Shown in pieces: positions 112 through 555 of a stretch of DNA of 555 nt. Every line of letters starts with the position of its first letter. The first letter of the stretch is position 1. The translations under genes were made by a program, and so were the position numbers. This DNA is from a phage. The notes under the pieces are model-generated. The model made no database searches and had not been told where the DNA came from. It saw only the letters and a program-made list of their open reading frames with translations. The stretch lies in sequence record EF517108.1. The stretch is one strand, 5' to 3'.

Positions 112-261
112 ATGTTCCGCTTATTGTTGAACCTACTGCGGCATAGAGTCACCTACCGATTTCTTGTGGTACTTTGTGTTGCCCTTGGGTACGCATCTCT
201 TATTGGAGACCTCAGTTCACTGGAGTCTGTCGTTTGCTCTATACTCACTTGTACCGATTAG
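112..261 (+). CDS. 19.5: Small hydrophobic phage protein of unknown function, 49 aa (T7 gene 19.5-like); translation MFRLLLNLLRHRVTYRFLVVLCVALGYASLIGDLSSLESVVCSILTCTD
   Basis: ATG at 112 preceded by a strong SD; open frame of 49 codons ending at TAG 259-261. Basic N-terminus (R3, R10, H11, R12, R16), then a hydrophobic stretch (about residues 17-31), then a Cys-containing tail (C22, C42, C47). Position (last gene before the right-end repeats and terminal repeat) and length match what I recall of T7 gene 19.5; the exact residue identity to T7 was not verified by alignment. Confidence 0.8.
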   Translation: MFRLLLNLLRHRVTYRFLVVLCVALGYASLIGDLSSLESVVCSILTCTD

Positions 262-500
262 GGTCTTCCTGACCGACTGATGGCTCACCGAGGGATTCAG
301 CGATATGATTGCATCACACCACTTCATCCCTATAGAGTCAAGTTCTAAGGAATACCCATAAAGAGCCTCTAATGGTCTATTCTAAGGTCTATACCTAAAG
401 ATAGGCCATCCTATCAGTGTCACCTAAAGAGGGTCTTAGAGAGGGCCTATGGAGTTCCTATAGGGTCCTTTAAAATATACCATAAAAATCTGAGTGACTA
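262..500. other. Non-coding right-end region between the last gene and the terminal repeat
   Basis: No ORF longer than about 22 codons on the + strand and none with a credible RBS on either strand; dense with short repeats and small palindromes. Consistent with the non-coding right end of T7-group genomes. Confidence 0.6.
343..429. repeat. Array of imperfect heptamer-type short repeats (CCTAAAG family), resembling the short-repeat region inside the right end of T7
   Basis: Copies read from the sequence: TTCTAAGG 343-350, CCCATAAAG 355-363, TTCTAAGG 380-387, CCTAAAG 394-400, CCTAAAG 423-429. Further copies lie inside the terminal repeat (CCTAAAG 517-523 and 541-547), and related copies occur upstream (CATAAAG 8-14 and 94-100). 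A 7-bp direct repeat GGTCTAT sits at 374-380 and 386-392. Confidence 0.6.
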
Positions 501-555
501 TCTCACAGTGTACGGACCTAAAGTTCCCCCATAGGGGGTACCTAAAGCCCAGCCA
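501..555. repeat. Start of the right-hand direct terminal repeat (terminal redundancy) of a T7-like genome; the repeat continues beyond the window
   Basis: TCTCACAGTGTACGGACCTAAAGTTCCCCCATAGGGGGTACCTAAAGCCCAGCCA matches my recollection of the first 55 bases of the T7 genome left end. The boundary cannot be proven from this window alone because the other copy is not present here. Confidence 0.6.
524..540. other. Short GC-clamped hairpin / inverted repeat (CCCCC-ATA-GGGGG) within the terminal repeat
   Basis: CCCCC at 526-530 and GGGGG at 534-538 are reverse complements separated by a 3-nt loop (ATA), with an additional T-A pair possible at 524/540. Flanked by CCTAAAG repeats on both sides. Function not assignable from sequence. 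Confidence 0.4.

Follow-up and report, generated by a model that had tools for sequence, protein, structure and literature searches.

Co-oriented, lineage-specific heptamer arrays around the terminal repeat of T7-like phages: a possible loading platform for the packaging machinery

The right end of the bacteriophage T7 genome carries an array of short heptamers, all on one strand, which runs from unique DNA into the terminal repeat (TR). We herein show that a one-orientation array is present on both sides of the TR in every Studiervirinae lineage examined and in SP6, that the heptamer itself differs between lineages while the spacing register is conserved, and that one copy keeps its place beside a conserved block abutting the TR. 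Judging from these sequence comparisons, we propose that the array may act in cis at the concatemer junction, as a platform onto which the terminase/maturation machinery is loaded, an explanation that we consider plausible and rate somewhat short of an even chance. The array itself is already known: it presumably corresponds to the short-repeat arrays SRL/SRR flanking the T7 terminal repetition, a pair of terminal arrays reportedly described by Dunn and Studier in the 1983 T7 genome paper. The T7 array (T7 39620-39832) has the same sequence, coordinates, heptamer and orientation as that in the DNA analysed here, which carries seven point substitutions. Our additions are modest, and genome papers may already mention some of them: a core specific to each lineage, a conserved register, one copy fixed beside the conserved block, and the extension to SP6. 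In the literature accessible to us (the primary T7, T3, phiYeO3-12 and phiA1122 papers excepted) we found no function assigned to the array, which places it among the few conspicuous sequence features of T7 of this kind. T7 serves as a model phage and also as a chassis on which transducing particles, phagemids and continuous-evolution systems are engineered, and these applications all rely on the pac/TR region; once the role of the heptamers in concatemer processing is known, designers could minimise or insulate packaging signals.

The window (i.e., the whole 555-nt stretch of record EF517108.1 that was analysed) aligns without gaps to nt 39278-39832 of phage T7, + strand, with 98.7% identity and seven substitutions, in agreement with its preliminary assignment to the right end of a T7-group phage. 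It extends from just 3' of the promoter phiOR through gene 19.5 to the initial 55 bp of the right TR. By this alignment, window position 501 is T7 nt 39778, base 1 of the right 160-bp TR, which begins with TCTCACAGTG; hence, the array does cross the boundary between unique DNA and the terminal repeat, as had been claimed from the letters alone. The landmarks are as follows.

T7 39229, 49 nt upstream of the window: promoter phiOR, from the original annotated T7 record
Window 112-261 (T7 39389-39538): gene 19.5, from the T7 annotation
Window 465-500, + strand: junction block GTCCTTTAAAATATACCATAAAAATCTGAGTGACTA, immediately left of the TR, conserved in seven aligned genera
Window 501-555, + strand: first 55 bp of the right TR, identical in sequence to T7 nt 1-55

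The window differs from T7 at positions 179, 203, 254, 303, 344, 351 and 381, and five of the seven changes are C>T or G>A transitions. All three differences within gene 19.5 alter the protein (A23V, T31I and S48T); those at 303, 344, 351 and 381 were seen in none of 13 close relatives, and a 27-nt exact pattern spanning 344 and 351 had no match among viral contigs. The record may derive from a mutagenised or laboratory-evolved T7, or the sequence may have been altered. Two of the substitutions (344 and 381) degrade heptamer copies, as can be seen among the repeats of the window.

8-14, + strand: CATAAAG, between phiOR and gene 19.5; phiA1122 has extra copies in this stretch
94-100, + strand: CATAAAG, overlapping the ribosome-binding region of gene 19.5
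344-350, + strand: TCTAAGG, which is CCTAAGG in T7 and 13 relatives; the private substitution hits the first base
357-363, + strand: CATAAAG, 13 nt past the preceding copy (344)
374-392, + strand: GGTCTAT twice with 12-nt spacing, in the spacer of adjacent repeat units; overlaps the primase-type TGGTC at 373-377
381-387, + strand: TCTAAGG, again CCTAAGG in T7 and 13 relatives, with the first base privately substituted
394-400, + strand: CCTAAAG, unchanged across 13 T7-clade relatives
423-429, + strand: CCTAAAG, kept in 12 of 13 relatives within a variable stretch
446-452, + strand: degenerate CCTATGG; frame CCT..GG constant, core ATG, AGG, GAG or AAG in T7-clade relatives
457-463, + strand: degenerate CCTATAG, adjoining the junction block; one mismatch to CCTAAAG
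517-523, + strand: CCTAAAG within the TR; CCCAAAG in 7 of 13 and CCCAAGG in 2 of 13 relatives, CCCAAAG in T3
541-547, + strand: CCTAAAG within the TR

The heptamer motifs lie where the preliminary description had placed them, and their number is far from random. CCTAAAG occurs four times (394, 423, 517 and 541) against 0.12 expected, a count that none of 200 shuffles reached; together with CATAAAG at 8, 94 and 357, the total for C[C/A]TAAAG is seven against 0.17 expected, and the minus strand of the window holds no heptamer copy. The CTAAGG copies (345 and 382) were likewise placed correctly, but as a motif on its own CTAAGG is not above chance in the window (two against 0.52 expected; 20 of 200 shuffles reach two). 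GGTCTAT, described earlier as a nested direct repeat, is found at 374 and 386 as given (3 of 200 shuffles reach two copies); rather than nested, it forms the spacer of 12-13-bp units, and it is included in an imperfect 22-nt duplication (343-364 versus 380-401). The start-to-start gaps of the right-end array are irregular (13, 24, 13, 29, 23, 11, 60 and 24 nt), and the copies at 8-14 and 94-100, which lie outside the array proper, may be outliers.

Of the 22 copies of CCTAAAG on the + strand of the T7 genome, nt 1-340 hold 11 and the final 270 nt another five, which leaves only six for the 39 kb in between; the - strand carries three copies genome-wide. These counts confirm that comparable arrays lie inside both ends of T7 DNA, and the view of the array as non-coding is in line with them. 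To the right of the left TR the copies follow a near-perfect 13-bp period.

T7 nt 175, 188, 201, 213, 226, 239, 267, 280, 293, 306, 319 and 332: copies of the left array

The right- and left-end arrays have the heptamer in common, but their spacers differ. Moreover, the heptamers are direct (co-oriented) at both genome ends, and their layout is symmetric about the TR in the concatemer junction, not about the mature termini.

To look at relatives, we scanned seven reference genomes with true ends, from 450 nt left to 350 nt right of the TR, and determined the most frequent 7-mer in each, with no motif presupposed.

T7: CCTAAAG, 13 copies
phiA1122: CCTAAAG, 13 copies
T3: CCTAAAG, 9 copies
phiYeO3-12: CCTAAAG, 13 copies
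K1F: CCTACAG, 6 copies
K11: CCTGAGG, 5 copies
gh-1: CCATAGG, 8 copies

No reverse-complement heptamers were found in the junction regions of these seven phages, and all seven carry their own heptamer on both sides of the TR. When the copies were re-counted within 300 nt per side, every phage stood above all 200 dinucleotide-preserving shuffles, K11 only marginally (five copies versus a shuffle maximum of four). From copy to copy, the commonest distance is 12-13 bp, and distances of 23-26 bp form a second group. A further 80 IMG/VR loci, gathered via the large terminase (gp19 79-100% identical to that of T7), add the heptamers CCTAAGG, CCTATGG, CCTTATG, CCTAATG, CCTTAGG and CTATCAG; the array is present in most of them, and in one (L094) CCTAATG recurs at 20-bp spacing. 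SP6, which belongs to another subfamily, has seven copies of an oriented CTTAGTG on both TR flanks and no reverse-complement copies, and the phiKMV junction gave no significant heptamer array. Thus, comparison with close relatives, as the preliminary description had advised, revealed that the position, orientation and spacing of the array are conserved and that the copies far exceed the expectation from base composition. In the Yersinia fPS phages, 11-34 repeats run from the left TR to the first phage promoter, their number varying among close relatives (PMC5923468), and the same survey lists repeats from the last promoter to the right TR, to which it assigns no function (PMC5923468, Tables S19 and S20). 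Like T7, these phages have short direct repeats at both ends, between promoter and TR; their heptamer and period differ from those of the window.

Most of the lineage heptamers fit a CCT-NNN-G frame. This frame is a tendency, not a rule: a strict universal version of it fails, since CTATCAG (in L035) and the CTTAGTG of SP6 fall outside it, and CCATAGG of gh-1 conforms only on the opposite strand. We compared alignment columns among 13 relatives within the T7 clade, taking heptamer positions 1-3 and 7 as the frame. Variable columns amounted to 4/36 in the frame, 6/27 in the core and 33/104 in the spacers; frame and spacers differ in variability (Fisher p = 0.016), whereas the difference between core and spacers in these 13 relatives is not significant.

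The most conserved neighbour of the array is the junction block. Across genera, 36-38 nt left of the TR are kept (...CCTTTAAGAATnTnACCAnAAAAATCTGAnTGnnTA, followed by TCTCA at the TR start); an HMM profile of the block matches 76 of the 80 loci, and only one of 46 columns varies within the T7 clade. In T3-like and K11-like phages, K1F, gh-1 and two of the loci (L028 and L046), a heptamer of the phage's own lineage starts about 45-46 nt before the TR, and the window copy at 457 occupies the position of the block-abutting heptamer of T3, phiYeO3-12, K11, K1F and gh-1. Since a heptamer stands beside the block across genera in which its sequence differs, the position has been kept while the sequence changed. 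Between T3 and T7 it is the heptamer that is common, and the block that differs at several positions. On conservation, we regard the block at 465-500 as a candidate terminase recognition or cut-positioning element, and as a better candidate for that role than the heptamers.

Replicating T7 genomes are joined head to tail via one shared copy of the TR. At such a junction the co-oriented heptamers lie on both TR flanks and in the left part of the TR, for the most part 12-13 bp or a multiple of this apart, and the (A)CCTAAAG-type array could serve in cis as a platform with many sites onto which the maturation/packaging machinery is loaded. This machinery is terminase (gp18/gp19), perhaps joined by T7 RNA polymerase that has paused there. 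On the array, the complex would be gathered and oriented beside the 36-bp block, near the cut that defines the left TR boundary. The CCT...G frame would be the part that is probably read, by a conserved protein surface sensing frame and register, while the three core bases would drift and be homogenised within each lineage. The symmetry about the TR, the co-orientation, the periodicity and the fixed copy make a multi-site platform the simplest reading, and spacings of 12-13 and 23-26 bp are those expected if an oligomeric protein contacts the DNA repeatedly. Protein binding and any packaging role of the array are what we infer from these features. In T7 the pac signal consists of PacB and PacC, gp18 recognising PacB and gp19 cutting at PacC (PMC9860248); gp18 is interchangeable between T3 and T7, and packaging specificity is conferred by gp19 and the terminal 5% of the DNA (PMC3276506). 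The heptamer that T3 and T7 share, together with their divergent block, would be compatible with separate tasks for array and block. The role in end recognition, packaging or replication suggested at the outset is broad and fits the evidence presented here.

We propose the platform mechanism because of its analogy with known small-terminase recognition arrays, the R sites of lambda cosB and the pacL/pacR boxes flanking the pacC cut of SPP1. In both systems, as in T7, several short direct repeats lie near the terminase cut site, and in SPP1, again as in T7, they are found on both of its sides. The T7 array offers multiple sites adjoining the cut-site region, on both TR flanks, one of them abutting the block about 40 nt from the TR. 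Compared with those of lambda and SPP1, its units are more numerous and, at 7 bp within a 12-13-bp register, shorter; a further difference is that gp18 divergence does not track the repeat, and terminase binding is suggested here by analogy.

As to what might read the array, a host protein is disfavoured, given that K1F and T7 both infect E. coli and have different heptamers. Nor does the overall identity of gp18 go with heptamer class, as would be looked for in a co-varying reader: gp18 of T7 and of phiYeO3-12-like phages are 73% identical and go with the same heptamer, whereas those of phiYeO3-12-like and K11-like phages are 81% identical and go with different ones. Global gp19 identity likewise does not track heptamer class. 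Residue 45 of gp18 (D45 versus E45) splits phages with CCTAAAG or CCTAAGG from the others, a split confounded with phylogeny. Close relatives with near-identical gp18 differ in their TR copies (CCTAAAG versus CCCAAAG), and the two substituted copies in the window would suggest, provided that the phage they come from is viable, that individual heptamers are dispensable. Two further points speak against a platform, namely the uneven gaps of the right-end array and the changeable repeat number in the fPS phages (PMC5923468). The only Pfam match of gp18 is PF11123, and our search for a solved gp18 structure returned none. A separate observation is that the gp18 amino-acid sequences of the T3 reference (L004) and phiA1122 (L019) are identical in the comparison that also covers L029; T3 and phiA1122 thus combine identical gp18 with gp19 and genome ends of different groups, which we read as a sign of mosaic exchange in the packaging module.

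A more general statement, which we regard as possible but doubtful, is that the arrays belong to the packaging signal in both Studiervirinae and SP6-like phages, as a hitherto uncharacterised component, and that a conserved terminase surface reads them only through the CCT-N3-G frame in its 12-13-bp register. The core would then be free to drift, concerted evolution acting across the concatemer junction would homogenise it, and the copy that stands at a constant distance from the junction block would contribute to positioning the cut. If this were true, the core would be neutral, marking the lineage but encoding no specificity, and packaging in engineered T7 could be tuned or insulated by a redesign of the array.

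Several other explanations have to be weighed against a packaging platform. Possibly, the heptamers are slippage-prone tandem repeats without sequence-specific function, tolerated as spacer DNA between TR and promoter, their similarity on the two sides being maintained by unequal exchange or gene conversion within concatemers. Whole 13-bp units have indeed been duplicated with their spacers (CCTAAAGACCAGA in T7 and CCTAAAGCCACCA in phiYeO3-12), and such neutrality would also suit the copy number of 11-34 among close fPS relatives (PMC5923468), the private substitutions in two copies of the window, the core that is no more conserved than the spacers, and the rapid turnover of the core triplet between lineages, which is independent of terminase divergence. 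However, the array persists in at least six Studiervirinae genera and SP6 in a single orientation on both flanks, its two ends share the heptamer but not the spacer, the frame is more conserved than the spacers (p = 0.016), and one copy has stayed fixed against the junction block across genera despite sequence change. On balance we consider functionless repeats unlikely.

A second alternative, which we judge rather improbable, concerns the replication of ends and the duplication of the TR: repeats and spacers would provide last-chance priming or pausing sites inside each TR, which would thus be left single-stranded for concatemer annealing or be copied during maturation. Primase-type pentamers (GGGTC, TGGTC and GTGTC) are in fact enriched in both arrays, on opposite strands.

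Window 373-377, 417-421, 431-435 and 463-467, + strand: primase-type pentamers of the right end
T7 (L003) 249, 290, 303, 316 and 329, - strand: primase-type pentamers of the left end

The four sites of the right array fall within 158 nt (top 0.4% of T7 windows) and the five of the left array within 200 nt (top 0.2%); at either end they lie on the strand that would be the lagging-strand template for a fork running to that end, and similar + strand sites, together with GGTCTA(T), occur left of the heptamers in T3, K11 and K1F. The clusters may serve last-chance priming that defines a single-stranded TR tail. Nevertheless, primase sites occur in the spacers and not within the heptamers; a single duplicated unit accounts for four of the five left-end sites, which are therefore not independent; and gh-1 lacks such sites of T7 specificity. 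Moreover, an element related to the fork should invert between the ends, as the primase sites do, whereas the heptamers are direct.

Transcription offers a further, quite unlikely, explanation, in which the array slows or pauses T7 RNA polymerase coming from phiOR, or CCUAAAG repeats act in the RNA. The copies are all oriented along T7 transcription, with phiOR 49 nt upstream of the window, but the RNA showed no sign of structure (z = -0.20; 77 of 200 shuffles gave folds as good or better), no Rfam family scored above chance (best E = 0.38, 19 bits versus a gathering score of 50), and the window holds no terminator-like site. With folding against shuffles and Rfam both lacking a signal, we rejected a structured RNA or DNA element. 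The RNA polymerases of T3 and T7 differ in promoter specificity, and yet the two phages share the heptamer. T7 RNA polymerase recognises a class II pause/termination signal of the ATCTGTT type at the concatemer junction. This signal resembles the array in acting at the same junction, in cis and directionally, and it was found right after the TR in all seven reference phages; its sequence, however, is unlike the heptamer, and it is located just past the TR, outside the window. The pause signal at the concatemer junction is also dealt with in the work on T3/T7 packaging specificity cited above (PMC3276506). The junction block does hold ATCTGA (window 488-493), a partial look-alike of ATCTGTT. 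Promoter activity within the window was discarded as well, its single sigma-70-like site being at chance level and inside gene 19.5. An origin of the heptamer from promoters was rejected, again because T3 and T7 share the heptamer and not the promoter specificity, and because the K11 heptamer is unlike the K11 promoter.

Protection or handling of the physical ends, by Chi-like modulators of host exonuclease or by portal/core contacts during ejection, is hardly credible: copies do occur close to each mature end (a few hundred bp at most), but an element that meets an end-entering enzyme should invert between the ends and the copies are direct, on which ground the Chi-like version was rejected, their arrangement is symmetric about the TR in the concatemer junction and not about the mature termini, and T7 encodes a RecBCD inhibitor (gene 5.9 by annotation).

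Apart from the heptamers, the junction region contains several other sequence features. GGTCTA(T) recurs left of heptamers in four genera (in K11, for example, as GGGTCTAcctacGGGTCTAT), and it lies about 70-130 nt left of the TR in K11 (L014), K1F (L012) and gh-1 (L013); it may be a separate conserved element or a mere reflection of primase sites. SP6 (L097/L095) and phiKMV (L098/L096) share AATTTTGATAT, about 20-30 nt left of the TR. Its dissimilarity to the T7-group block suggests, at the level of sequence, subfamily-specific pac cores. At window 291-331, about 190 nt left of the TR in a stretch that is near-invariant in the T7 clade, there is an imperfect inverted repeat with 19-nt arms that are 74% complementary and a 3-nt loop. 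A hairpin intermediate of T7 concatemer processing was reportedly mapped to roughly this place by Chung, Nardone and Hinkle in 1990; as single-stranded DNA, the inverted repeat at 291-331 folds no better than its shuffles (z = -0.87). Finally, a palindrome, CCCCCATAGGGGG, lies at window 526-538, within the TR and between two heptamers. The C-run that it includes varies from 5 to about 11 C among relatives, and variation of this kind has also been reported for poly-C tracts in the repeats of the fPS phages.
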